From NCBI GenBank assembly GCA_963716475.1, contig OY970314.1, positions 138,479 through 202,478 on the forward strand: DNA of 64,000 bases, written 5' to 3'. How positions within the stretch are numbered: position 1 is the first letter of the stretch; every line of letters begins with the position of its first letter. The position numbers and the translations under genes are program-made. The DNA comes from Candidatus Woesebacteria bacterium (GTDB lineage: Bacteria; Patescibacteriota; Microgenomatia; UBA8517). Shown here in pieces: positions 6,316 to 33,172 of this stretch. The notes beneath the pieces are model-generated. The model was not told the origin of the DNA. It made no database searches and saw only the letters and a list, made by a program, of their open reading frames with translations.

Positions 6316-7206
6316 ATGCGAAAACTAATAGTCCTATTGTTTTTGGTGGTATTGGCTGTTGGAGTACTTAAGCCGATGGGGGTGCTTGCCGTGGTTTCTT
6401 CCCGCACCCCTGCGCCTACGCCGACCCCAACACCAATGGCTCTTGTCACGCCCGAGCCGGCCCGCGTGGATATTACCCAAAAAAGTGTGGAAACCTTAGG
6501 CCCTCTGGAGAAACTCCTTAAGGAGCAGACACTGGGTTCAGTTTGGCCGTTGAACCCTGTTAAATATGCGATTCGTTCGTCAGTTGCTTCCGGAGTTCCT
6601 GCAAATACGATAGTTTTACTTTTGCTTTTACCGATAGTTGCTTTTGTTATTGCCTTTACAAGGAACGTAATCGGAATTAGGGGGTTCGGAATTTTTCTTC
6701 CCGCCGCTTTATCTGTTGTTTTTGTAGCCATGGGGCCAATTGTCGGAATAGGACTTTTTTTGGTAATTGTCATAGTCTCCACTGCCATGAGGATGATTCT
6801 TAGAAAACTAAAGGTTAAACTCCAATACCTACCCAGGATGGCTTTTATTCTTTGGGCGGTGGTACTCGGGGTTTTGGGAGTTCTTTTCCTGGCTCCGGTT
6901 CTGAAGTTTTCGGATCTTGCCAACGTTTCTATTTTTGCGGTCCTTTTCCTGGTGCTTTTGGCAGAGGACTTTACCCGCGTTCAGCTGGGTAAGAGCGTCA
7001 AAACAGCCATAAATCTAACCTTTGAAACACTAATATTATCTTTAATTTCGTTCCTATTTCTTACTTTCCAGCCGCTGCAAAGATATGTACTTCTTAACCC
7101 TGAAATATCCCTTTTGGTAATTGCTGTGGCCGATCTTCTTCTTGGAAAATATACCGGCCTCAGGGTTATGGAGTTTTACAGATTCAGAAAGCTTATCAGA
7201 AGCTAA
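6316..7206 (+). CDS. Polytopic membrane protein (signal-anchor, Pro/Thr linker, then 7 TM helices); resembles the 7TM module found with RimK-like ligase/retropepsin systems
   Basis: Hydrophobicity pattern shows one N-terminal helix, a TPAPTPTPTP linker, then seven helices. The stop lies 4 nt before the ATP-grasp gene start. Confidence 0.6.
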   Translation: MRKLIVLLFLVVLAVGVLKPMGVLAVVSSRTPAPTPTPTPMALVTPEPARVDITQKSVETLGPLEKLLKEQTLGSVWPLNPVKYAIRSSVASGVPANTIVLLLLLPIVAFVIAFTRNVIGIRGFGIFLPAALSVVFVAMGPIVGIGLFLVIVIVSTAMRMILRKLKVKLQYLPRMAFILWAVVLGVLGVLFLAPVLKFSDLANVSIFAVLFLVLLAEDFTRVQLGKSVKTAINLTFETLILSLISFLFLTFQPLQRYVLLNPEISLLVIAVADLLLGKYTGLRVMEFYRFRKLIRS

Positions 7207-7210
7207 AAAA

Positions 7211-8503
7211 ATGAAAATATCCTCAATTTTGGGGTTAAATGCCAGAACTCAGTTATTTGCCTATAGGTATAATACTAAACGTGGAAAAGATATTGCTGAT
7301 TCCAAGATTCAGACAACCAGAATCTTGAGAAAAGCCGGAGTAGCGCACCCCAAAATTTACAAGAAGTTTTTTGATCCTAATGATGTCTTTGAATTTGACT
7401 GGACAACCCTCCCGGATAAATTTGCTCTTAAGCCCAGCCGGGGAATGGGAGGGGAAGGAATAATAGTTGTTAAGAAACGTTTGAAGGATGGAGGGTGGTT
7501 AACTACGCAGAAAGACCGAATTAAGATTGACGATCTGAAGCTCCACGTATTGGACACTCTGGAAGGAGCATATTCTATGGGAAACGTACCCGATGTTGCT
7601 TTCGTTCAGGAATATGTAGGGAGGGCTAAAGCCTTCAGAAGGTGGGCCTACAGGGGAACCCCTGACATCCGTATTATTGTGTTTAATAAGGTTCCTGTAA
7701 TGGCCATGCTTCGTTTACCGACTAGAGAAAGCGGTGGAAGGGCTAATTTGCATCAGGGGGCTATTGGTGTGGGTGTTGACATCGCTACAGGCATTACTAC
7801 AAAGGCAATCTGGCACGGTGAACAAATTATATTTAAGCCCGGTACGGAAAGAAAACTTAGGGGAATAAAAATTCCCAGCTGGACGTTGGTTTTGGAAACC
7901 GCCGTTGCTGCACAAATTGCTTCGGGACTTGGGTATGCAGGGGTGGACATCGTGATTCACCCGGAAAAGGGGCCGATGGTACTAGAGCTTAATGCGCAGC
8001 CCGGACTTCAGATACAACTAGCCAATATGGAGGGTCTTAAAAAACGACTGGAGCGGGTGGAAGACCTTGACGTTGTTGATGCACAACATGGGGTTATGAT
8101 TGCCAAAGCAATATTCGCCGGGAGATTTGAAAACAGGAGAGCAGTAGAGGAAGGAATAAAAACCCTTAAAAGTTTGGAAGAAGTTAAGATTTACAGTTTT
8201 GATAAATCCAAAAAAGCGAAGGTTTTGGCCCGTATCGATACGGGGGCCGTAAGAAGCTCCATCGATAAAAAACTTGCTGGAGAGTTAGGACTCTTGGTTA
8301 AAGAGAATGTATTGTGGAAAGACAGGGGGTATAGATCTGCAACAGGTCGGGAAACACGTCCTGTAATAGGAGTACAGTATGTGATAGCCGGCAAAAAAAT
8401 CAAGTCCTCAGTATCCGTTGCCGATAGGTCGAAAATGTCAACCCGGTTTCTCATAGGAAGGAGCGATATGGCAGGGTTTTTAATTAATCCAAACGCGGAA
8501 TGA
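7211..8503 (+). CDS. Alpha-L-glutamate ligase-like (RimK-related) ATP-grasp enzyme fused to a C-terminal retropepsin-like aspartyl-protease domain (DUF785, the mis-named ATP-dependent zinc protease family)
   Basis: N-terminal ILGLNARTQLFAYRYN...DSKIQTTRIL resembles the RimK-related E-ligase family. ATP-grasp core KPSRGMGGEGIIVV...VLELNAQPG. C-terminal KAKVLARIDTGAVRSS...RPVIG...VADRSKMSTRFLIGRSDMAGF matches the retropepsin-like DTGA fold. Start moved to the ATG at 7211. Confidence 0.75.
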   Translation: MKISSILGLNARTQLFAYRYNTKRGKDIADSKIQTTRILRKAGVAHPKIYKKFFDPNDVFEFDWTTLPDKFALKPSRGMGGEGIIVVKKRLKDGGWLTTQKDRIKIDDLKLHVLDTLEGAYSMGNVPDVAFVQEYVGRAKAFRRWAYRGTPDIRIIVFNKVPVMAMLRLPTRESGGRANLHQGAIGVGVDIATGITTKAIWHGEQIIFKPGTERKLRGIKIPSWTLVLETAVAAQIASGLGYAGVDIVIHPEKGPMVLELNAQPGLQIQLANMEGLKKRLERVEDLDVVDAQHGVMIAKAIFAGRFENRRAVEEGIKTLKSLEEVKIYSFDKSKKAKVLARIDTGAVRSSIDKKLAGELGLLVKENVLWKDRGYRSATGRETRPVIGVQYVIAGKKIKSSVSVADRSKMSTRFLIGRSDMAGFLINPNAE

Positions 8504-10341
8504 CAAAAAGAAAAAAGATATTAATCATAGTTGGGGGAGGGACGAAGCACCTTTCTACATTTGGATTGGAGGGTAGAAAACTTGGAATAGATGTAACACT
8601 GGCGTCTTTTTCCGATTTGGAATACGACTTTAAAGGTACCGATAAGGAATTTGCGATTACGGTGAGTGGGAAAGACTTGGCCAATTTCGATGTAATTTAT
8701 TTCAGGTTGGTGGGCAAAAGGTTGGAGGATGCTTCAATTGTTGCAAATTATGCAAAGGGAAAACGAATAAAAATAGTTGACAAAATATACAAAAAATCTC
8801 AATTTATCCGTCTTCCTTTGACTAAGGGTCTGGAAACAAAACTCTTGTTTGAGCAAGGGCTTCCTGTTCCAAGGACATTATTCTTGTCGTTACACGAGAT
8901 GGCAAAAAAAGCTCCGGAGCTGCTTGGTTTCCCGTTTGTTATCAAGGGCACTAACGGTAAACAAGGTCATGCGGTGTGGTTGCCGGAAAGCTTGGGTGAA
9001 TTAAAAAGACTTGTCAAGGATTTGGGCCCTCGCGAAACTTTGGGAGAAAGGTTTCTGGCACAGCAGTTTATAAAAGCTAGTATTAGGATTAGGGTGTTTG
9101 TGATAGGAGGTAAAGCCAGGGCTGCCATCGTGAGACCTACAAGATGGAGAAGCCGATTCGATAGAGGTGAACCTTTAAGATTGAGCTACAAGAAAGTTCC
9201 GTTAAAGTATGCGCAAGTTGCCGAAAAGGCAGCCAAGTCATTGTACATTGATATAGCTGGGGTTGATTTGCTGGAGGATATAGATAAAAAATTATACGTA
9301 CTGGAAGTGAATTCGGCACCGCGTTGGGACTCAATTGAAAAGGATACGGGGTTGAATGTAGAAAGGGAGATTCTCAAGTTTTTAATCACCGTCAAACCTG
9401 AGCGTAAGATATTGATGGATGAGTTTGCCAAAAAGGCTGTTAAGTTTGGATATACCGTCAGAGAGTATCTATCAGATAAAAGAGTTTACGAGGTTTCAAA
9501 AAATGGAAAGATTGCAATAACAATTAGTAAACATTTTCCGCTAAATACAGTCGTAGGGTCTCAACTGGCAAAAAGGAAGAACCTGACAAAACAAATTCTA
9601 AAAAAAGCCGGCATACCGATTCCTAACGGAATTTTAACCGACAACTGGAACGAGGTTTTGCAATCATTAAATACAGGGAAAATCAGTTTTCCTTTAGTTG
9701 CCAAGCCTGATACATCCTCGTTGGGGAAATTTGTCGCTGCAAAAATTGAAGACCCGGCGGATTTAAAAGCAGTTTTCGAAAGAATAAGAAAGAAATTTGG
9801 AACTGTTTTGATAGAGGAATATATTAGTGGGGAAGAATATCGCTTCTTGGTTCTGGATGGTAAAGTCTTGGCCGTTGCCCATAGAATTTTGCCTTTTGTC
9901 ATCAGCGACGGGAAGTCAAAAATTTCGGAGTTAATAGACGGTTATAATAAAGGAAGGATAGAACCTTTGATACTTGGGTATGAGGTGGAGAGAGTCCTTG
10001 GCAAACAGGGATTTGATTACAATAGCATTCCGGAGAGCGGACAAAAAATTCTTCTGAGAAGTAATTCGAATGCCCATACGGGAGGAAAGGTTGAAAATCC
10101 TATCGGTAAAGTTCACTCGAAATATTTTGAGACAGCTATTAAAGCAACGGAAACTTTAGGTTTGAGGTTTTGTGGCGTTGATATTATAACGGAAGATATA
10201 ATGAGTGGAGAGTCCAGATATTTTGTTATCGAGCTTAATGCCGATCCGGGGTATGATTTGCATTGGGAAACTGAAAACGGGGGTAAGTATGATGCTACAG
10301 AAGATATCCTAAATACGTTATTTTCGGACAAATCTGCATAA
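8500..10341 (+). CDS. Tandem double ATP-grasp ligase: N-terminal RimK-like module plus C-terminal cyanophycin-synthetase-N-terminal-like ATP-grasp module
   Basis: Module 1: FPFVIKGTNGKQGHAVW...YVLEVNSAPRW. Module 2: FPLVAKPDTSSLGKFV...ISDGKSKISELIDG...YFVIELNADPG. 4-nt overlap with the upstream gene. Confidence 0.7.
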   Translation: MTKRKKILIIVGGGTKHLSTFGLEGRKLGIDVTLASFSDLEYDFKGTDKEFAITVSGKDLANFDVIYFRLVGKRLEDASIVANYAKGKRIKIVDKIYKKSQFIRLPLTKGLETKLLFEQGLPVPRTLFLSLHEMAKKAPELLGFPFVIKGTNGKQGHAVWLPESLGELKRLVKDLGPRETLGERFLAQQFIKASIRIRVFVIGGKARAAIVRPTRWRSRFDRGEPLRLSYKKVPLKYAQVAEKAAKSLYIDIAGVDLLEDIDKKLYVLEVNSAPRWDSIEKDTGLNVEREILKFLITVKPERKILMDEFAKKAVKFGYTVREYLSDKRVYEVSKNGKIAITISKHFPLNTVVGSQLAKRKNLTKQILKKAGIPIPNGILTDNWNEVLQSLNTGKISFPLVAKPDTSSLGKFVAAKIEDPADLKAVFERIRKKFGTVLIEEYISGEEYRFLVLDGKVLAVAHRILPFVISDGKSKISELIDGYNKGRIEPLILGYEVERVLGKQGFDYNSIPESGQKILLRSNSNAHTGGKVENPIGKVHSKYFETAIKATETLGLRFCGVDIITEDIMSGESRYFVIELNADPGYDLHWETENGGKYDATEDILNTLFSDKSA

Positions 10342-16377: not shown

Positions 16378-17313
16378 CTACTTGCTTCTCCAGAAGTCTA
16401 AAGTGTCTTTAAGAGTGGTTTCCAAGGGGATTTTTGGCTCCCAACCTGTTAATTTTACAAACTTTTGGTTATTTCCGACATAAACGGGGGTATCCGAGGC
16501 GCGCAGTTTTGAAGGATCCTCTTTAACGGTTAACTTTTTATCGGATAACATAAGTAAGATTTCAAGGATTTCTTTAATCTTGACTCCCTTACCTGAACAA
16601 ATATTGTAGCTGTCACCGGGAGTCCAGTTTTTATCGATGATGGATTTATAAGCGGCTACAACATCACGGACATCAAGGTAATCGCGGATAGGCTCCAAGT
16701 TTCCAACCATAAGAACGTTGCTTTTTGGGTTCTTTTCCAATTCTGCTACCTGGGAGGCAAAATCCGGTACCACAAAACCCTTTCCCTGGCCGGGACCTGT
16801 GTGGGTGAAAGGTCTAAGTATCAAAATATTCAATTTTTCGCTTTGCGTAAAACTATAGCTAAGCCGGTCGCTTGCTGCCTTACTGGCCGAATAGAACTTG
16901 GTGGGGAAAAGCGGGGAGTCCTCGGTTATGTTTTTCGGGTCGGTGGTATTGCCATAAACTTCTGAAGAACTAATAAAGAAAATTTTAGGATTATAATCTG
17001 AATTCTGACGGACCCCCAGCACAGTTTCGTAAAGATTTATCGTCCCGAGCATATTTATTTTGAACACCTCCTCAACGTTTCTGTCCCATGTTTGGCTTTT
17101 TGCCGCCAGGTGGAAAACAACTTCGGGTTTTTCCTTTGAGATTAGATCAGCCAAAAACTTTTTGTCCAAAATATCACCGGGGAAATAATCTATTTTGGGG
17201 TTTGGGTTAACTCCGGTAACATCAGTTCCGGTAATCTGATATTTCTCAAGTAGTGTTTCGGTAAGATAATGTCCTACGAAGCCAGCCGCACCGGTAATTA
17301 AAACTTTTTGCAT
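16378..17313 (-). CDS. GDP-4-dehydro-6-deoxy-D-mannose reductase / GDP-L-fucose-synthase-like SDR
   Basis: Rossmann ITGAAGFVGHYL, YSASKAASD YxxxK, and a position directly downstream of gmd. Confidence 0.65.
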   Translation of the reverse strand: MQKVLITGAAGFVGHYLTETLLEKYQITGTDVTGVNPNPKIDYFPGDILDKKFLADLISKEKPEVVFHLAAKSQTWDRNVEEVFKINMLGTINLYETVLGVRQNSDYNPKIFFISSSEVYGNTTDPKNITEDSPLFPTKFYSASKAASDRLSYSFTQSEKLNILILRPFTHTGPGQGKGFVVPDFASQVAELEKNPKSNVLMVGNLEPIRDYLDVRDVVAAYKSIIDKNWTPGDSYNICSGKGVKIKEILEILLMLSDKKLTVKEDPSKLRASDTPVYVGNNQKFVKLTGWEPKIPLETTLKDTLDFWRSK

Positions 17314-17324
17314 TAGGAAGATAC

Positions 17325-18335
17325 TTACCTAAACCTTTTCAGATCTGCGTCCACCATCATTTCAATTAATGTTTTAAAGTCGGTTTTGGGTTCCCAACCA
17401 AGCTCTCTTTTGGCTTTTGAATAATCGCCAGTTGATTCTTTAATTTCTGTAGGTCTGAAGAATTTTTTATCGGAAATTACATGATCTTTCCAATTAAGTC
17501 CTGCATGTTCAAATGCGATTTTGCATAAATCCATAATTGAGTGCGAAGTATCTGTGGCTATGACGTAATCTTCGGGCTTGTCCTGCTGAACTATTTTCCA
17601 AATAGCTTCTACGTATTCCTTGGCATATCCCCAATCGCGTTTGGCTGTAAGATCCCCCATATGAACCCTGCCTTCTGCATCAACCAAAGGTTCGCCCAGC
17701 TCATCAAGGGGAATATTTTTTGCGTGATTTTTAATGCAAGCAACGGCAGCTGTAACCTTTCTTGAAACGAAATGTAAACCTCTTCTAGGACTTTCATGGT
17801 TAAAAAGAATTCCGGCTACCGCAAACATTCCGTAGGATTCGCGGTAGCAGCGTACCATCAAATGTGCATAGGCCTTAGCAATACCATAGGGGTTATTGGG
17901 ATCGACAGGGGTAGTTTCATCAGCTTTCATTTTTGCGATGTTTCCGAAAATTTCTCGGCTGGAAGCTTGGTAAAATCGGGAAGTGGGGGAGAGATTTTTG
18001 ATTGACTCTAAAATCCTTACTACGCCCATCCCGGTAACCTCGCCTGTATAAAAAGGCTGTGCCCAACTGTCCGCCGGAACGGACTGTGCGGCAAAGTTAT
18101 AGACTTCGTCGGGTTTATGGTCCCTTATTACCCTGCTAATGGATTCGTAATCGGTGAGGTCTGCCAGTTCGACCTTGATTTTTCCAAGAAGGTGGCCAAT
18201 ATTCTCCTTCTGGTTAGTTGTACTTCTCCTTATAGTACCGACAACTTTATAGTTTTTCTCAACCAGAAGATCTGCCAAGTATGATCCGTCCTGAGAGGAA
18301 ACCCCGAATATTACGGCTATTTTTTTATCTGCCAT
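17325..18335 (-). CDS. gmd: GDP-mannose 4,6-dehydratase
   Basis: AVIFGVSSQDGSYLADLLVEKNYKVVG N-terminus and the GMD-family length and motifs. Confidence 0.85.
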   Translation of the reverse strand: MADKKIAVIFGVSSQDGSYLADLLVEKNYKVVGTIRRSTTNQKENIGHLLGKIKVELADLTDYESISRVIRDHKPDEVYNFAAQSVPADSWAQPFYTGEVTGMGVVRILESIKNLSPTSRFYQASSREIFGNIAKMKADETTPVDPNNPYGIAKAYAHLMVRCYRESYGMFAVAGILFNHESPRRGLHFVSRKVTAAVACIKNHAKNIPLDELGEPLVDAEGRVHMGDLTAKRDWGYAKEYVEAIWKIVQQDKPEDYVIATDTSHSIMDLCKIAFEHAGLNWKDHVISDKKFFRPTEIKESTGDYSKAKRELGWEPKTDFKTLIEMMVDADLKRFR

Positions 18336-18418
18336 ACGATAATCAGAATTATATCAGATTTCAGAAAAACCGCGAACAACAGACAAGTTGAAAAGACGAC
18401 TTTGCAAAACAATTCCAA

Positions 18419-19684
18419 ATGCTTCATCATTTAGTAATGTTTGCTCCTTTTAGAAGGTCGTTTGCATTTTTGGGCGATAAAGTCTGGTCCAAGGTAATTC
18501 TTTTTTCTTTGACGCTCTTTCTGATTCGTATTGCAGACGGGGTTATTTCTTTTTGGGCACCGAACCAAATCCAGTCTTCTTTGAATAGTTCCACCTGGAT
18601 GGGAATAATAATCAGTTTCCAATCAGTGGTAGGATTTGGAGCAGATCTTATTTTCCCGGCACTTCTTAGGACTACAAAAACCAAACGTCTGGTTTTTTGG
18701 GCAATAATGATGTCTGCTCTGACTTCATTTTTTCTGGCAACCTCGGCAGTTAAGCCTTTTGTTGCTATATTTTTAGTCACTATGGCCGTGTGGGGAATTT
18801 ATTATGAGTTTATGGCTTTTGCCGACTATCAATTTATAGGAAGCGTAGTGCCGCCTCACATGCGCTCAGCGGCATGGGGAATTGTTGACACTTTTTTAAA
18901 TATGGCTTACTTTTTGGGGCCACTTTTGGCAGCCGCGTTGCTTCTAAATGGCTATATATTTACAGAGGGTTTAATTTTGGTTTTTTTGGTTGGGGCACTA
19001 TTGCTTCTTTCCTTTTTTAAAGGAGCTCATGACGCTCCGGCCCAAATAGATATGAAGGAAATTAATCCTTGGGTTGAGTTCAAACACTGGTTAACTCTAT
19101 CTAGGCATATTTGGCCGGCAATGGTGGTTAGTTTACTTTTGGGTTTTATAGACGCGACCTTTTGGACAACGGGGGCGGTTTGGACAGAGAAGTTGGTTAA
19201 GATAAATTATCTAGGTGGCCTATTTTTGCCGTTTTATCAGCTACCTGCAATTTTTTTGGGGGTAGTGGTTGCAGGGTGGGGAATTTACAAAGGTAAAAAA
19301 ATACTGACGGAAAAATTTTTGATTGTTGCGGGCATTTTTCTCGCAGGACTTGCGATTAGCGGGAGCATTTATTGGCAACTGACTATGGTTTTCCTTTCAT
19401 CTGTTGCGCTTGCCATCTGCTACCCGCTTCTCGAGGGTGTTTATACGGATATTGTGGTCAGAATGGGTAAGGAAAGAAATGACTTGATAGGGCTTACCAG
19501 TTCGGTCTCAAATGTTTCCTACATAGTTTGGCCCCCGATTGTCGGGGTGGTCGCAGGGATAGTCGGTGAGAGATTAACTTTTTCTTTTGTCGGAGTATTG
19601 GTGGTTGTAGTTTCCATAATTCTTCTTTTTGTTACCCCGAAAAAACTCCGTTTGCCGCAAGGAGAAATCAAAAGCTGGAAGTAA
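18419..19684 (+). CDS. MFS-type membrane transporter (about 12 TM)
   Basis: Two six-helix halves by hydrophobicity. Divergent from gmd. Confidence 0.6.
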   Translation: MLHHLVMFAPFRRSFAFLGDKVWSKVILFSLTLFLIRIADGVISFWAPNQIQSSLNSSTWMGIIISFQSVVGFGADLIFPALLRTTKTKRLVFWAIMMSALTSFFLATSAVKPFVAIFLVTMAVWGIYYEFMAFADYQFIGSVVPPHMRSAAWGIVDTFLNMAYFLGPLLAAALLLNGYIFTEGLILVFLVGALLLLSFFKGAHDAPAQIDMKEINPWVEFKHWLTLSRHIWPAMVVSLLLGFIDATFWTTGAVWTEKLVKINYLGGLFLPFYQLPAIFLGVVVAGWGIYKGKKILTEKFLIVAGIFLAGLAISGSIYWQLTMVFLSSVALAICYPLLEGVYTDIVVRMGKERNDLIGLTSSVSNVSYIVWPPIVGVVAGIVGERLTFSFVGVLVVVVSIILLFVTPKKLRLPQGEIKSWK

Positions 19685-19687
19685 CCT

Positions 19688-20158
19688 TTATTCGATTTTT
19701 AAAAGTTTAGCGATCTGCGTCGTTGAGGGGACGTCGATCTTGGGGATTTCGATAAGTGAGGCGCCTATACTTTCCGCCTGCTTACGTTTTTTTTCGATAA
19801 CGGGGTCGCCGGAAGTAACTGCAATCACCTCGGGACTAATGACACTAACGAGTTTGTTGTAATCTTCGTCTTTCATCTCGTCTGCCAAAATAATTACCTG
19901 GTCTACAAAATGCAACGACTCAAGCATCTCACGTCTTTGGTTTTGGCCATGTATAGGGCGTTTTTCGCCTTTGAGCCTTTTTATATTTTTGTCGGATTCC
20001 AGAGCCACGACCAAGTAGTCACCAAGAGCTTTGGCCTTTTTCAAAAAATGAATATGGCCGTAGTGAAGAATATCAAACGCTCCGCCAACAAGAACTACTT
20101 TAGCAGGAACCTGTCTGGCCAAGCTTTGTTTAGTTTTTTTTGCCTTTAGCTTTCTCAT
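19688..20158 (-). CDS. Cytidylyltransferase-fold nucleotidyltransferase, RfaE-domain-II-like (heptose-1-phosphate adenylyltransferase, or an FMN/FAD adenylyltransferase-like enzyme)
   Basis: VVLVGGAFDILHYGHIHFL (HxGH) and KRLKGEKRP motifs. Confidence 0.65.
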   Translation of the reverse strand: MRKLKAKKTKQSLARQVPAKVVLVGGAFDILHYGHIHFLKKAKALGDYLVVALESDKNIKRLKGEKRPIHGQNQRREMLESLHFVDQVIILADEMKDEDYNKLVSVISPEVIAVTSGDPVIEKKRKQAESIGASLIEIPKIDVPSTTQIAKLLKIE

Positions 20159-20842: not shown

Positions 20843-21922
20843 ATGCCCACCTCAAAAAGCGAGGACGAAGCTTTAGTCAAAAAATCCGTTCCGAAACAAA
20901 AAACTAAACTTGCGGTTGACAAAGAAGCTCTCAAGAAATTCCGTTTGGTTGTTGTTGCTTATTCCAGCGTGCAAAGAGAACATTTTGCCACAAAGTCTGC
21001 CTATGAAGCAGAGGTTGAGGTAGAAGAAAGAGCGATCGAGGTTTCTGAAGAGATCAGAAAACTTGGGGTTCAGGTTCGGACACTTCCCGGAGATCAATAT
21101 TTTTACACCAATCTTCTTGTCGATAAACCCGACTTGGTAGTTAACCTTGTGGATACGCTAAAAGGCCGTGACCAACTTCAACCGTCCGTACCGGCAGCTC
21201 TCGAGCTTGCCAATATTCCCTATACGGGTGCAGGAATGGAAGGTCTTATCATCGGTAATAATAGGAACCTGACTAAAAGACTTCTAATGGCTTACGATAT
21301 TCCAACCCCGCCGTTTCAATTCATAAGACGGGCGGGAACAAGTATTGATGAGGATCTTGGCCTTCCGTTGATAGTCAAATTAAATGAAGGTGGGGGAAGT
21401 GTGGGGATTGACAATCATGCGGTTAAGGAGAGTTTTAGGGCTACCATGCTTAGGGTCAATAAAATGATTTCTACATATAGATATCCGGTAGTTGTTGAGA
21501 AGTTTATCGGAGGTCCGGAAATAACCGTGGTGGTTTTTGATGACGGAACCAAGCGCCACGTTTTTATGGCACAGAAAATATTCAGAAAGAAGCCGGACGG
21601 CAAACACTTTTTCACAAGTTTTGAGTCTTATGAAGATGAGAGGGCCTATAAATACGTGCCGGTAGAGGAGAACCTCAGATTTGAGATTACCAAACTGGCG
21701 GTTAGGGCTTTTGGTGGCCTTCAACATAATGACTACGCAAAATTTGATATCAGGCTCGACGAAGAAACTAAGACCCCATATTTTACAGACAGTAATCCCA
21801 ATACAGCCTTCGGACCAGACATGGGTCTTCCCATGACTGAGGTAATGGCTATGCATGGGGTGGAATTTCCGGATATTATGGCTAGCCTTCTCTCCAAGTA
21901 TGCCAGGGATTTACCCGAGTAG
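20843..21922 (+). CDS. ddl: D-alanine--D-alanine ligase family ATP-grasp enzyme with an N-terminal ~40-aa extension
   Basis: Ddl-like central region (NRNLTKRLLMAYDIPTPPF) and C-terminal region (AKFDIRLDEETKTPYFTDSNPNTAFGP). Confidence 0.6.
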   Translation: MPTSKSEDEALVKKSVPKQKTKLAVDKEALKKFRLVVVAYSSVQREHFATKSAYEAEVEVEERAIEVSEEIRKLGVQVRTLPGDQYFYTNLLVDKPDLVVNLVDTLKGRDQLQPSVPAALELANIPYTGAGMEGLIIGNNRNLTKRLLMAYDIPTPPFQFIRRAGTSIDEDLGLPLIVKLNEGGGSVGIDNHAVKESFRATMLRVNKMISTYRYPVVVEKFIGGPEITVVVFDDGTKRHVFMAQKIFRKKPDGKHFFTSFESYEDERAYKYVPVEENLRFEITKLAVRAFGGLQHNDYAKFDIRLDEETKTPYFTDSNPNTAFGPDMGLPMTEVMAMHGVEFPDIMASLLSKYARDLPE

Positions 21923-21989
21923 CCTGCTCCCGACAAATACAACCCCCGTCTTGACGGGGTAGACATAAGGCCGTACAATTGGGCGAATT

Positions 21990-22628
21990 ATGGTTTTAGA
22001 GAAAAACCCCAAAACACGACGCTTAGCCAAAAGACTCCTTGAGCTTGAAGATAAGATTGTGGGCAAGCCGTTCCCCAAGATGAAAAGGTCAAAACAGGTG
22101 ACTTCTTCCCATTGTGGACCTGCAGTGATTGAGGCACTTTTCTCTTTTCTTGGGCAGAAAGTCTCACAGGCTTCCGTTGTCAGATCAATAAAAGCCGACA
22201 AAAAAATTAAAAAGATTGGTCTGAACGTCACCGACCTAGGACTAGCCGTCAAAAAACTTGGCAAAGGTAAGTTTAATTTTTGGAAAAAGGCGGGGTCAAC
22301 CATTTCCAACCTGTCGATAGCAGTGAATAAGTATCAATATCCGGTCGGTGTCGAATGGCAGGGGGTTTTTTACGAATATGCAGACGGGGACAACGGACAC
22401 TATTGTGTCGTAACCAGAGTAAATAAGGAGGGAGGATACCTTAGGCTCGCAGATCCGTTTTTCAAGTTTGCCGGGGTTGATAGAAAATTCACATTAAAAG
22501 ATTTTCAAAAAAGATGGTGGGACGAAAATGTTATCGGCAAGAAAACCGTGAAGGATAAAAAAATGATGTTTCTCATAACTCCAAAAAGCGACTCCTGGCC
22601 AAGAAAGCTTGGAATGAAGAGGGCCTAA
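21990..22628 (+). CDS. Stand-alone C39-like papain-fold cysteine peptidase domain protein
   Basis: Q...SSHCGPAV catalytic Cys motif and GHYCVV...LADP His/Asp motif in C39 spacing. Confidence 0.55.
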   Translation: MVLEKNPKTRRLAKRLLELEDKIVGKPFPKMKRSKQVTSSHCGPAVIEALFSFLGQKVSQASVVRSIKADKKIKKIGLNVTDLGLAVKKLGKGKFNFWKKAGSTISNLSIAVNKYQYPVGVEWQGVFYEYADGDNGHYCVVTRVNKEGGYLRLADPFFKFAGVDRKFTLKDFQKRWWDENVIGKKTVKDKKMMFLITPKSDSWPRKLGMKRA

Positions 22629-22672
22629 CCTCGGCTTTGTACTTATTACGAGTTTCTTGTAGAATTAAAAAG

Positions 22673-22975
22673 ATGTCAGAATCACACGAAGGACCTGAAA
22701 CGTTTTATGGTAATAAATCCAGACAGGAAATCAGCGATTTTATTGAAAAACATACAAGCCGGATGCAGGTTCCTCGCGAACCCAGCTTCCTTCGCAGACT
22801 GTTTGGTCCCCGTGGAACGCAAACGGTTGTTTCAATTAAAGATGACCGCGAGGGAAGGATGAATGCAACCCGGGCACCTTCAATGATAAGAAATCAAATA
22901 CGTCAGGAACCGGAAGAAAAGACGACAGAAGGACCACACGAGTTGAAAAATGGTCGTTGGGTACCAAAAAAGTAG
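22673..22975 (+). CDS. Hypothetical small basic protein
   Basis: ORF only. Start taken at the internal MSESHEG. Confidence 0.35.
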   Translation: MSESHEGPETFYGNKSRQEISDFIEKHTSRMQVPREPSFLRRLFGPRGTQTVVSIKDDREGRMNATRAPSMIRNQIRQEPEEKTTEGPHELKNGRWVPKK

Positions 22976-30421: not shown

Positions 30422-31495
30422 ATGAAATTCATAAATCCCATAGACAGATTCCTGGGACTTTTCTCCCACGATGTTGGAATTGATTTGGGTACAGCCAACA
30501 CTCTCGTTTATGTCAGAGGCAAGGGAATCGTTATCCGCGAACCTTCGGCGGTGGCAAGACACAAAAAATCAAAAGAAATTTTAGCGATAGGCGCCTCTGC
30601 AAAGAAAATGACAGGCAGGGCTCCTGCGACAATCGAAGTAATCCGCCCCTTGCGGGACGGGGTTATTGCAGACTTTGATGCAACGGCAGCGATGCTTACT
30701 TATTATATTAAGAAAGTTCACGAATCAGGAAGTTCGATGCCGAAAATTCCAAGACCGCGGGTTGTTATAGGAATTCCTTCGGGTGTAACCGAAGTTGAAA
30801 GGAGGGCCGTGGCAGATGCAGCGTTAGACGCGGGCGCCCGTGAGGCAAATTTAATAGAAGAACCCATGGCTGCGGCTATTGGAGCGCACCTTCCGATTGA
30901 GGGACCTGAAGGGATATTTGTAGTTGATATCGGAGGCGGGACGAGCGAAATTGCCGTGATCTCTCTTGGCGGAATAGTACTTGGTAGAAGTGTCCGCATT
31001 GCCGGTGACGAAATGGATGAGGCAATAATTAATTACGTCAGACTTAAGTACTCGCTCCTTCTGGGCCAACCCACAGCTGAGGTGGTCAAGATTGGAATTG
31101 GTTCAGCGGGTTCTCCAAAAGAAAGTTCCGATAAAGCTGAAAAATTTGCCGTTGTCCGCGGCCGCGATCTTGAGGTAGGACTTCCAAAATCGATAAGACT
31201 CACAAGCGGTGAAATCCAGGAGGCTTTAAGCCCCATTATTCAGGAGATTGTCGGGAATATTGTCGATACGCTTGAGGAAATTCCGCCCGAGCTGACCGGC
31301 GATATTATGGAGAGGGGAATTACTCTTGCAGGCGGAGGGTCCCAAATTTCTGGAATTGATAAAGTAATTTCCGAAGCTACAAAAATGCCGGTTTGGATTG
31401 CAGAGGATCCCTTGACCTGTGTGGTCCGGGGTTGTGGAATTTGCCTGGAAGATAACGGACTTCTTAAAAGAATGAGGGTAACAAAAGGCCTGTAA
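30422..31495 (+). CDS. mreB: Rod shape-determining actin homolog MreB
   Basis: GIDLGTANTLVYV phosphate-1 motif. Actin fold throughout. Confidence 0.9.
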   Translation: MKFINPIDRFLGLFSHDVGIDLGTANTLVYVRGKGIVIREPSAVARHKKSKEILAIGASAKKMTGRAPATIEVIRPLRDGVIADFDATAAMLTYYIKKVHESGSSMPKIPRPRVVIGIPSGVTEVERRAVADAALDAGAREANLIEEPMAAAIGAHLPIEGPEGIFVVDIGGGTSEIAVISLGGIVLGRSVRIAGDEMDEAIINYVRLKYSLLLGQPTAEVVKIGIGSAGSPKESSDKAEKFAVVRGRDLEVGLPKSIRLTSGEIQEALSPIIQEIVGNIVDTLEEIPPELTGDIMERGITLAGGGSQISGIDKVISEATKMPVWIAEDPLTCVVRGCGICLEDNGLLKRMRVTKGL

Positions 31496-31537
31496 TTTCC
31501 AAAATTTGGATTTTCAGTGTAAATTGGTAGTTAAATT

Positions 31538-33172
31538 ATGAATTCTCTCTCAGCAATCAAATCCCAATCGTGGCTTTCCTGGTTTTTAAGAGGAATTCTG
31601 ATTCTTTTGTTTTTGGTTCTTTTTGCAAAGCTTTTTGAAGTCCAGATTATTAAAGGCAAATATTATCAGGATTTGTCACAAGGCAATAGGATCCGCCACG
31701 TCGCCGTTCCCGCCCCCCGCGGAAGAATTTTGGCTCGTGGTGGAGAAGAATTGGCAACAAATGTTGAGATTAAAAAAAGAGTTAAATTTGCTTCCGACGG
31801 AAGTTTTACTGTAACGGATGATTTGACTGACGCAAAGCCGGAAGAATTTATTACCGATTACAAAAGAGTTTATCCTATGGGTGATAAATTTTCTCATGCG
31901 CTAGGATATCTTGCTCAAGTTGGTCCAGAGGAGGTGGGTAAAATTAATCCGGGGTGCCCTGAAAAAGGCCCAATGTCTCCCGATGAATTAATCGGTAAAA
32001 CAGGTTTGGAACAAGCGTATGAATGTAGTTTACTGGGAACGCCGGGTGAGGAGCTTATTGAGGTTAGCGCGACAGGTGCTGAGGTCAGAGTTTTGGGAAG
32101 ACGTGAACCTGTCCCTGGGCGTGATCTAAAAACAACAGTTGATTATGGACTTCAAACGGTGGTTGCTTCGGCAATGAACGGAAAGAAGGGGGCGGCGATT
32201 GTAACAGACGTAACGGGACAAGTTTTGGCTTTTTATTCTTACCCGACTTTTGATCCAAACCTGTTTATTAATAAGAATAATAGCCGGGAGATCGGAAACT
32301 TACTTAAAGATCCGGGTCTACCCTTTTTCGACAGGGTTATAAGCGGTACATATCACCCGGGATCGGTTTTTAAGCCAATAGTTGCTCTTTCGGCGCTGGA
32401 GGAGGGTGAAATTGACAAAAATTTCCGTTACAACGATACGGGCATGATAACGGTGAATGGTTATTCCTATACCAACTGGTACTTTACGGAGTATGGAAGA
32501 ACGGAAGGGTCTATTGGTTTGGTAAAAGCAATAGCCCGTTCTACGGATACATTCTTTTATACAATAGGGCAAATGGTAGGGCCGGAAGAGATTGCAAAAT
32601 GGGCAAAGACTTTTGGCTTAGATAGCCCAACAGGGATTGACATTCCGGGAGAAGCTGCGGGTCTTATACCGACTCCCGAATGGAAAAAAGAAGTTACGGG
32701 GCAGTCGTGGTTTCTGGGAAATACTTATCATATGGCAATTGGCCAGGGGGATGTTTCAGTTACCCCTATTGAATTAAATAATTACATTTCGGGAATTGCT
32801 ACCGGCGGAAAAATTTGTGAACCCAGATTCAATATGGAGAGCGCTCCGAATTGCAGAGCCGTAAATGTCTCCGAAAGTAATTTCAGCTTGATACACGACG
32901 GAATGGGAGCGGCATGTTCGGAGGGGGGTACCGCCTTCACTTTTTTTGATTTCTCGCAAAAACACAATGGGACAACCGTTGACTGTAAGACAGGAACGGC
33001 AGAGGTTGGCACAGACGGAACACCCCATGCTTGGTTTACCTTTTTTGCACCGGCGGTTAGTCCCCAAATAGTATCCACGGTTATTATAGAAAGAGGCGGT
33101 GAGGGCTCGAGTGTTGCCGGTCCTATTGCTAGAAAGATTGCCGATTATTATTTTGCTTCTCAAAGTAATTGA
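31538..33172 (+). CDS. mrdA: Penicillin-binding protein 2-type peptidoglycan D,D-transpeptidase
   Basis: N-terminal TM, dimerisation domain, and a transpeptidase domain with SVFK (SxxK). Adjacent to mreB. Confidence 0.75.
   Translation: MNSLSAIKSQSWLSWFLRGILILLFLVLFAKLFEVQIIKGKYYQDLSQGNRIRHVAVPAPRGRILARGGEELATNVEIKKRVKFASDGSFTVTDDLTDAKPEEFITDYKRVYPMGDKFSHALGYLAQVGPEEVGKINPGCPEKGPMSPDELIGKTGLEQAYECSLLGTPGEELIEVSATGAEVRVLGRREPVPGRDLKTTVDYGLQTVVASAMNGKKGAAIVTDVTGQVLAFYSYPTFDPNLFINKNNSREIGNLLKDPGLPFFDRVISGTYHPGSVFKPIVALSALEEGEIDKNFRYNDTGMITVNGYSYTNWYFTEYGRTEGSIGLVKAIARSTDTFFYTIGQMVGPEEIAKWAKTFGLDSPTGIDIPGEAAGLIPTPEWKKEVTGQSWFLGNTYHMAIGQGDVSVTPIELNNYISGIATGGKICEPRFNMESAPNCRAVNVSESNFSLIHDGMGAACSEGGTAFTFFDFSQKHNGTTVDCKTGTAEVGTDGTPHAWFTFFAPAVSPQIVSTVIIERGGEGSSVAGPIARKIADYYFASQSN

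Follow-up and report, generated by a model that had tools for sequence, protein, structure and literature searches.

The DNA analyzed here, referred to as the window, is a stretch of 64,000 nucleotides of contig OY970314.1 from Candidatus Woesebacteria bacterium. It carries two neighboring genes, one for a diverged ATP-grasp ligase of the D-alanine-D-alanine ligase (Ddl) lineage, named lig1 throughout, and one for a stand-alone cysteine peptidase of the C39 type. The two genes are a functional pair, and adjacency by chance is excluded. Regarding their joint task, our tentative first choice is a system composed of an ATP-dependent maker of amide bonds and a thiol amidase or transferase, both acting on one small non-ribosomal substrate, possibly a precursor of the cell envelope. 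An earlier note, made by reading the sequence, had pointed to both open reading frames (ORFs); they were confirmed at the coordinates given in Table 1, on the plus strand and 67 nt apart.

The linkage of the two genes was surveyed from both sides. Starting from the peptidase, lig1 was found directly upstream and on the same strand in 48 of 53 loci of species-representative genomes; one of the other five is cut at a contig end, and four hold distant peptidase homologues (28-33% identity) without a ligase. Starting from lig1, the peptidase lies directly downstream in 65 of 80 metagenome loci. The remaining 15 comprise five contigs that end just past lig1, seven peptidases fused to a GNAT domain, one peptidase split by a frameshift (L054), and two loci too short to tell. 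At the seven fusion loci, the GNAT domain is N-terminal and moves the start of the peptidase some 600 nt further downstream. In total, the pair is present at 119 loci, 79 of which are distinct at 95% lig1 identity. The intergenic gap is at most 100 nt in 77 of these 79 lineages, and the ORFs overlap in 31. Hosts are Woesebacteria, Shapirobacteria, Gottesmanbacteria, Roizmanbacteria and other Microgenomates, a Patescibacteria genome named 'BroJett032', and several metagenome-assembled genomes (MAGs) of Chloroflexota/Anaerolineales; both proteins are present in public collections, where relatives are labelled Microgenomates, Woesebacteria or Patescibacteria. The synteny check proposed in the earlier note thus returned near-universal adjacency of ligase and peptidase in relatives, which supports a functional pair.

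One protein record, P0276 (524 aa, its N-terminus cut off by the end of a contig), holds lig1, 56% identical to that of the window, and the peptidase in one ORF. It appears to be a fusion of the two, with the reservation that a single record may be an assembly or frameshift artefact. The only lineage found to have lig1 without the peptidase is that of L139 and L141, where an unrelated protein of 442 aa takes the peptidase's place. Clustering of all neighboring ORFs revealed no further universally conserved partner around the pair.

The ligase itself matches PF07478 (Dala_Dala_lig_C) with 67.3 bits at a cut-off of 24, and the solved structures related to it are Ddl (E 1e-16), VanA, L-amino-acid ligase and PurD, all of them amino-acid ligases. 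On the Ddl models of NCBIfam it scores far below the cut-offs, with 101.2 bits on NF002378 (cut-off 243) and 94.9 bits on TIGR01205 (cut-off 245.65), compared to 345 and 297 bits for a canonical Ddl of the candidate phyla radiation (CPR) taken from Shapirobacteria locus L034. Models of D-Ala-D-Lac and D-Ala-D-Ser ligases yield 32-38 bits versus cut-offs of 495-550, the D-Ala-D-Lac model in particular 35 bits versus 550. No graspetide model is found among the 25 best of 37 NCBIfam families matched by lig1, the top matches being all of Ddl or Van type. Canonical ddl genes lie beside the pair in L034 and L031, and hence a true ddl co-exists with lig1.

Residues were mapped on E. coli DdlB, using a reference sequence identical to PDB 2DLN/1IOV. 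Those binding ATP, adenine and Mg2+ are retained (K144, E180, E187, D257 and N272 in DdlB numbering), and E270 is changed to Asp; the lig1 counterparts K179, E219, E226, D302 and N318 are invariant in the family, D316 being the conservative replacement of E270. Substitutions, again in DdlB numbering, are S150G, K215S, R255K, G276A, S281M and L282G. Among the residues for D-alanine and the transition state (S150, K215, Y216, R255, S281, L282), only the omega-loop Tyr is kept, DdlB Y216 corresponding to lig1 Y263. As the replacement residues are themselves invariant across the family, in which identity to lig1 ranges from 54 to 96%, lig1 looks like an active enzyme whose site for the second D-alanine of Ddl has been re-tooled. 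The suspicion in the earlier note that this is no ordinary Ddl is borne out by the missing canonical residues and the low scores; the omega-loop Tyr position that it singled out for inspection is canonical, the other D-Ala-binding residues are not. Databases name lig1 'D-alanine-D-alanine ligase' or 'hypothetical', and the former label is very likely wrong as to function.

At its N-terminus, lig1 departs further from Ddl. An hhalign comparison with canonical Ddl (probability 98.6) covers Ddl residues 62-302 only, Dala_Dala_lig_N of Pfam finds no match in lig1, and the N-terminal GGxSxExxVS motif is absent. The protein begins with a Lys-rich extension that canonical Ddl lacks. This extension, put at 40 aa in the earlier note, is real but measures about 33 residues up to the first beta-strand, and within it only the proximal KLAVDKEALKKF is conserved. 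The remainder varies in length and sequence, and its distal part is missing from many homologues, whose tblastn matches begin at query residues 12-25. The extension has a pI of 9.8, the core one of 5.35.

The peptidase passes the Pfam cut-off of PF03412 (Peptidase_C39; 27.6 bits, cut-off 22) and stays just below that of PF13529 (Peptidase_C39_2; 21 bits, cut-off 24); PF03412 is matched by all 22 aligned homologues. The Cys and His/Asp motifs reported in the earlier note are present as KQVTSSHCGPAV (Gln36, Cys42) and GHYCVV...LADP (His137, Asp155), and all four catalytic residues are invariant in 22 of 22 homologues. An AlphaFold2 model reached a predicted local distance difference test (pLDDT) score of 86 and a predicted TM-score (pTM) of 0.87; the acidic loop before the catalytic His (residues 131-135) is variable and modelled with low confidence. 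Foldseek, run with this model, retrieved the peptidase domains of PCAT1 (7n87) and ComA (5xe8/3k8u) with E ~3e-7 and target-normalised TM-scores of 0.72-0.85, and also, over its full length, the Nostoc phytochelatin synthase Alr0975 (TM 0.61 both ways, 211 columns, E 5e-7). Further matches were the pseudomurein endoisopeptidase PeiR, LahT150, staphopain and CtaG. In a family-profile search of PDB sequences, ComA was the best match, at an E of only 0.05.

Since no signal peptide or hydrophobic N-terminus is found in its sequence, the peptidase should be cytoplasmic, like the C39 domains of PCAT/AMS transporters. It shares with the C39 domains of ComA, PCAT1 and LahT150 the Pfam family, the Gln/Cys and His/Asp motifs and the fold, but it is stand-alone and about 70 residues longer, owing to an N-terminal helix and C-terminal strands, and its partner is an ATP-grasp ligase, with neither an ABC transporter nor a leader-peptide gene nearby. 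The statement of the earlier note that no ABC transporter is attached extends beyond the window: none is fused or adjacent there, nor does one occur among the recurrent or annotated neighbors of related loci. The N-terminal helix is specific to Woesebacteria-type proteins; distant homologues begin at about residue 26-31, and in other lineages the GNAT domain replaces it. The family is narrow: of 1.84 billion representatives searched, only 369 clusters (50% identity) belong to it. Charge was discarded as a functional clue, because the pI, about 10 in the window, is inconsistent within the family (4.2 to 10.4).

Variants of the peptidase gene were seen at a few loci. In L054 (1330-1982) it is split over two frames downstream of a 96%-identical lig1, by a frameshift or an assembly error. 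In L036 (5367-6594) it is tandemly duplicated downstream of lig1, with copies 37-38% identical to the window protein. The Rhodobacterales MAGs L051 and L052 (2662-6600) carry a distant homologue (29% identical, PF13529 41 bits) without lig1, at the end of a gene run composed of an HDAC-like amidohydrolase, a P450 and an aldo-keto reductase.

The linkage, the apparent fusion, the intact catalytic centers and the rebuilt second-substrate site speak for a dedicated pair, which would consist of an amide-bond maker and an amidase or transferase. The two proteins would form a self-contained, co-expressed two-enzyme module. In lig1, the ATP/Mg2+ and acyl-phosphate machinery is kept and the second-substrate pocket is rebuilt; most likely, therefore, the enzyme spends ATP on coupling a carboxylate, probably an amino acid's, with an amine that is not D-alanine. 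Formation of an acyl phosphate followed by attack of the amine, the chemistry of Ddl, is presumably also that of lig1. The peptidase, in turn, would most likely hydrolyse an amide bond in the product or substrate of lig1, or transfer the acyl group via an acyl-enzyme intermediate; the direction of this step, like the substrate class and any link to the envelope, is our inference from the features of the two proteins and their neighbors. What the analysis shows is the linkage of the genes, their family assignments, the intact catalytic residues and a substrate pocket unlike that of Ddl. Ddl ancestry, the phytochelatin-synthase-like fold, and the recurrence of GNAT proteins and of a second ligase favor a small, non-ribosomal, amino-acid-derived compound: most likely an amino acid, a short peptide, or an envelope-polymer precursor decorated with amino acids.

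Closest in logic to the proposed maker and trimmer are glutathionylspermidine synthetase/amidase (Gss) and the couple of glutathione synthetase and phytochelatin synthase. Gss of E. coli combines two activities: an ATP-grasp synthetase makes an amide bond, and a papain-like cysteine amidase breaks it again. By analogy, a ligase and a cysteine amidase would be coupled here as neighboring genes, and apparently as a fused protein in one record. Differences are that CHAP is the domain type of the amidase in Gss and that another ATP-grasp family supplies the synthetase; no sequence relationship with the window pair was detected. Phytochelatin synthase has a papain fold and forms an acyl-enzyme with a small peptide, followed by hydrolysis or transfer, and the primitive enzyme uses the product of the ATP-grasp glutathione synthetase. 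The modelled window peptidase resembles Alr0975 (PDB 2BU3/6TH5) over its full length; yet it has no Pfam match to PF05023 (phytochelatin synthase, C83), its identity to Alr0975 is 13-14%, and nothing points to a thiol peptide as its substrate. With respect to Ddl itself (E. coli DdlB, 2DLN), lig1 is a homologous ATP-grasp enzyme with the same ATP, Mg2+ and adenine residues and the omega loop with its Tyr. It differs by its scores below the family cut-offs, the replaced second-substrate residues, the lost N-terminal motif, the Lys-rich extension, an obligate peptidase partner and the co-existing true ddl.

In some lineages, the pair has additional partners, whose role would be to attach one more residue or to cap the compound by N-acylation. 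The first is lig2, a second Ddl paralog of about 340 aa scoring 161-188 bits on Ddl models, which is encoded after the peptidase at 10 of the 53 and at 13 of the 80 loci in the two surveys. It does not occur within the 64-kb window, and none of the top 120 lig2 homologues stems from the window's source contig. At loci without lig1, lig2 overlaps a GT4 glycosyltransferase gene by one base, a nucleotide shared by stop and start codons, or lies near Wzx/Wzy. In L139 and L141, where lig1 is also present, it overlaps a gmd-like dehydratase gene and adjoins FdtA. We also considered lig2 as a housekeeping Ddl that would tie the pair to peptidoglycan; this is unsupported, as its neighbors are glycosyltransferase and sugar genes and not mur or cell-division genes.

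The second partner is a GNAT protein (PF13302). It is often fused to the peptidase, N-terminally in some proteins and C-terminally in others (loci L113-L119 and L122, e.g., L115:6080-7324; records P0268, P0278, P0282, P0285, P0301, and P0332), or is encoded as a separate paralog upstream of lig1 (L112, L123, L126, L127). In L139 (497-6074) and L141 (493-6026), genes for lig1, the 442-aa protein, a 178-aa protein, FdtA, the gmd-like dehydratase and lig2 follow each other on one strand in an operon-like manner, and the run is succeeded by a convergent GNAT gene and a nearby S51 (PepE/cyanophycinase-like) peptidase. Searches of PDB and of hidden Markov models (HMMs) identified neither the fused GNAT domain nor the 442-aa protein.

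The wider neighborhood varies with the lineage. In the window, genes for a gmd-like dehydratase, a sugar epimerase/dehydratase, an MFS transporter and a sugar-phosphate nucleotidyltransferase-like protein (RfaE-domain-II/TagD-like) lie just upstream of the pair (16378-20158), and a GHMP-kinase-like gene, a GmhA-like phosphoheptose isomerase gene and an epimerase gene were recognized by eye at 43-2324. These groups of nucleotide-sugar genes suggest a GDP-heptose or 6-deoxy-sugar pathway. Chloroflexota loci carry RmlD and GT2 genes directly downstream of the pair, Shapirobacteria show the gene order ddl, alr, murF-like, lig1, peptidase, and PBP1A is encoded downstream of the pair in L025 (Gottesmanbacteria). 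A CapA-like gene occurs at three loci, and an Asp/Glu racemase gene adjoins the pair at one (L046). The common theme is synthesis of cell-envelope polymers, an enrichment which we describe without a background rate and treat as a lead, not a finding.

Several points weigh against our preferred reading. The envelope link stays a lead because the neighbors differ by lineage and a background rate was not available; a nucleotide-sugar short-chain dehydrogenase/reductase gene lies within 5-6 kb in about one third of the independent lineages, which may be near chance in small genomes. Those C39 enzymes that have been characterised are known to cleave peptides of ribosomal origin. The N-terminal domain of lig1 was left unaligned by hhalign, and no confident alignment is available there. 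Moreover, the lig1 structure model reached a pLDDT of only 40, probably due to the shallow alignment of 23 sequences, so that the argument on the pocket depends on alignments; more generally, substrate and activities are predictions from sequence, which we count against our own preference.

A further objection is the slow evolution of lig1, seen in a comparison with neighboring genes in the window and in loci L001-L022. Between genomes, lig1 is 70-94% identical, compared to 33-61% for gmk, 57-81% for fmt, 67-73% for queA and 44-85% for the peptidase in the same genomes. It is thus conserved on par with NusG (81-91%) and L11 (79%), and its nonsynonymous divergence (dN) of ~0.05, versus ~0.33 for the peptidase, is about six times lower. 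Synonymous sites are saturated (proportion of synonymous differences, pS, 0.63-0.81), from which follows strong purifying selection on the lig1 protein; recent horizontal transfer and a constraint at the nucleotide level are ruled out as causes by the same saturation. Such slowness is unusual for an enzyme of small molecules or surface glycans, and a macromolecular partner would fit better. It is the main argument for such a partner or a large assembly, and no explanation considered here accounts fully for it.

The foremost alternative, which we regard as unlikely, is a reversible modification of a protein or peptide. Here, a highly conserved cellular protein would receive an amino acid or a peptide tag from lig1 on one of its carboxylates, or lig1 would ligate a small tag protein; the peptidase would remove the tag or process a Gly-Gly-like site, and the RimJ/RimL-type GNAT would acetylate the same target. 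Precedents for such ligases are RimK, which modifies S6, and TTL, which modifies tubulin. Besides the conservation of lig1 at the level of NusG and L11, its low dN included, this alternative can draw on the peptidase, whose fold matches characterised C39 enzymes acting on polypeptides, and on the fused GNAT belonging to PF13302, the family which holds RimJ and RimL; a substrate gene need not adjoin the pair. It has to cope with the solved members of the Ddl branch, which all ligate small molecules, with the lack of RimK, TTL or graspetide matches of lig1, and with the finding that neither a small ORF nor any other gene is conserved alongside the pair. Furthermore, the peptidase, which would have to contact this target too, has a roughly sixfold higher rate of evolution. 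A writer/eraser or processor system of this kind on a conserved macromolecule, with the Ddl-derived ligase attaching an amino acid or tag and the C39-type peptidase removing or maturing it, is distinctly doubtful. If true, it would represent a CPR/Chloroflexota counterpart of RimK, of TTL/vasohibin or of pupylation and would explain the NusG-like slowness of the ligase.

Editing of peptidoglycan precursors, one of two interpretations offered in the earlier note, we consider improbable. Following the logic of VanA/VanX, lig1 would make D-Ala-D-X or extend the UDP-MurNAc-peptide, and the peptidase would destroy the normal dipeptide or trim the stem. The organism makes peptidoglycan, as follows from genes for MreB and then a PBP2-type penicillin-binding protein, both recognized by eye from the translations (30422-33172), and the descent of lig1 from Ddl with its retained Y263, the Shapirobacteria gene order, PBP1A after the pair in L025 and the racemase gene in L046 all agree with this idea. 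However, VanX is a zinc D,D-dipeptidase (M15), and the window peptidase is a thiol enzyme with a papain fold. On the ligase side, the residues for the second D-Ala and the transition state are replaced (K215S, R255K, S281M, L282G), this pocket is rebuilt, and the scores on the D-Ala-D-Lac and D-Ala-D-Ser models are a small fraction of the cut-offs. Peptidoglycan-related neighbors are encountered in about three to four lineages only, and lig2 keeps company with glycosyltransferase and sugar genes rather than with mur or cell-division genes. The VanA/VanX comparison is hence not upheld; what is left of it is a looser link to the cell envelope, as a lead, from those lineages in which ddl/alr/murF, PBP1A, CapA-like, nucleotide-sugar or glycosyltransferase genes are neighbors. 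A canonical ddl is not found within the 64-kb window.

Maturation of a peptide made by ribosomes and modified after translation (RiPP) or bacteriocin, the other interpretation of the earlier note, is very improbable. The ATP-grasp enzyme would cross-link a precursor and the C39 peptidase would cut off its double-glycine leader, and indeed C39 motifs and fold are intact, and graspetide clusters exist in CPR bacteria (PMC8939145). Nevertheless, in 119 loci no conserved short ORF (20-75 aa) was found within 700 nt of the pair; to judge by where and on which strand they lie, the short ORFs that do recur seem to be shadows of neighboring genes in alternative frames. An ABC transporter is neither fused nor nearby, lig1 is of Ddl and not of graspetide type, and its purifying selection is housekeeping-like, unlike the fast turnover typical of such clusters. 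With no conserved precursor ORF nearby, no transporter and a ligase that is not of graspetide type, maturation of peptides with a Gly-Gly leader is not supported.

Finally, chance neighborhood of an ordinary ddl and an unrelated peptidase, which the name given to lig1 in source databases would favor, is practically inconceivable in view of adjacency at 119 loci in two phyla, the record in which both appear fused, the sub-threshold Ddl scores and missing key residues of lig1, and the canonical ddl that co-exists with it. Anti-phage defence or a phage origin was also considered and rejected: PADLOC defence models gave no match for the pair, and no relatives were found in IMG/VR.

Table 1. Coordinates of the ligase-peptidase pair and of its parts in the window.
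Feature	Position	Strand	Details and basis
lig1, diverged Ddl-lineage ATP-grasp amide ligase	20843..21922	+	359 aa; ORF call, PF07478 67.3 bits
lig1 Lys-rich N-terminal extension, residues 1-33	20843..20941	+	alignment with E. coli DdlB and canonical CPR Ddl
lig1 ATP-grasp C-terminal (Dala_Dala_lig_C) region, residues 148-350	21284..21892	+	Pfam match coordinates
Intergenic spacer, 67 nt	21923..21989	+	GC-rich hairpin 21944-21959; promoter-like TTGACG-17-TACAAT 21951-21979 (consensus matches)
Stand-alone C39/phytochelatin-synthase-like cysteine peptidase	21990..22628	+	212 aa; PF03412, AlphaFold2 model, Foldseek
Peptidase N-terminal amphipathic helix, residues 1-30	21990..22079	+	helix at residues 7-24 in model
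Codons Gln36 to Cys42 (oxyanion Gln, nucleophile Cys; QVTSSHC)	22095..22115	+	invariant 22/22; aligns with ComA Gln/Cys motif
Codons His137 to Asp155 (catalytic His, Asp; HYCVV...LADP)	22398..22454	+	invariant in 22-sequence alignment

In the window, the pair is flanked on its 5' side by a guanylate kinase gene in divergent orientation and on its 3' side by a poorly conserved ORF of 112 aa and a tRNA-Trp gene on the opposite strand. The 112-aa ORF (22637-22975), directly 3' of the peptidase gene, had no match in family searches; its conservation extends to no locus but L001, the closest relative (41% identity), so that it probably lies outside the module. In the spacer, the hairpin CCCCGTCTTGACGGGG overlaps the promoter-like element, which has 10 of 12 consensus matches (21944-21979), and judged by these letters the peptidase may have a promoter of its own in this genome. 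Inside lig1, an antisense ORF of 158 aa (21380-21856, minus strand) is most likely the shadow of a strongly constrained sense frame.

A further ligase-plus-peptidase pairing, mentioned in the earlier note, is real as well and is encoded at 7121..8503 and 8500..10341. In the product of the first gene, a RimK-related protein resembling alpha-L-glutamate ligases is fused to a C-terminal domain that is retropepsin-like (RloA3-type); the product of the second is a double ATP-grasp protein, one half of which is of the RimK family and the other cyanophycin-synthetase-like. An RloB-like seven-transmembrane protein is encoded at 6316-7206. The whole set (6316-10341) is similar to a system known from Pseudomonas, the Rlo system of osmotic stress (PMC12239564).

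Contexts of amidoligases and peptidases, including papain-like peptidases fused to GNAT, are an already described theme (PMC10318531, citing Iyer et al. 2009). As here, an ATP-grasp ligase, a GNAT protein and a peptidase share one neighborhood, which likewise holds for the N-acetylglutaminylglutamine amide 'trio' (NCBIfam TIGR03103). The GNAT-fused papain-like family named in PMC10318531 is DUF3335 (PF11814), which is absent from our Pfam matches, and in the TIGR03103 trio the ligase is of RimK or cyanophycin-synthetase type and is accompanied by an M42-family hydrolase. For a Ddl paralog paired, as here, with a C39-type peptidase that stands alone, we found no description in the searchable literature, the survey of Iyer et al. 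2009 lying outside this search.

The annotation of lig1 as Ddl may lead to errors when the cell-wall synthesis of candidate-phyla bacteria is reconstructed. Beyond annotation, the Ddl scaffold would here serve a different amide-bond reaction, and the C39-type peptidase would act without any exporter, in a two-gene module small enough for direct testing by expression in another host. As lig1 is among the slowest-evolving genes of its neighborhood, its conservation suggests an important, still undescribed physiology common to Microgenomates and some Chloroflexota.

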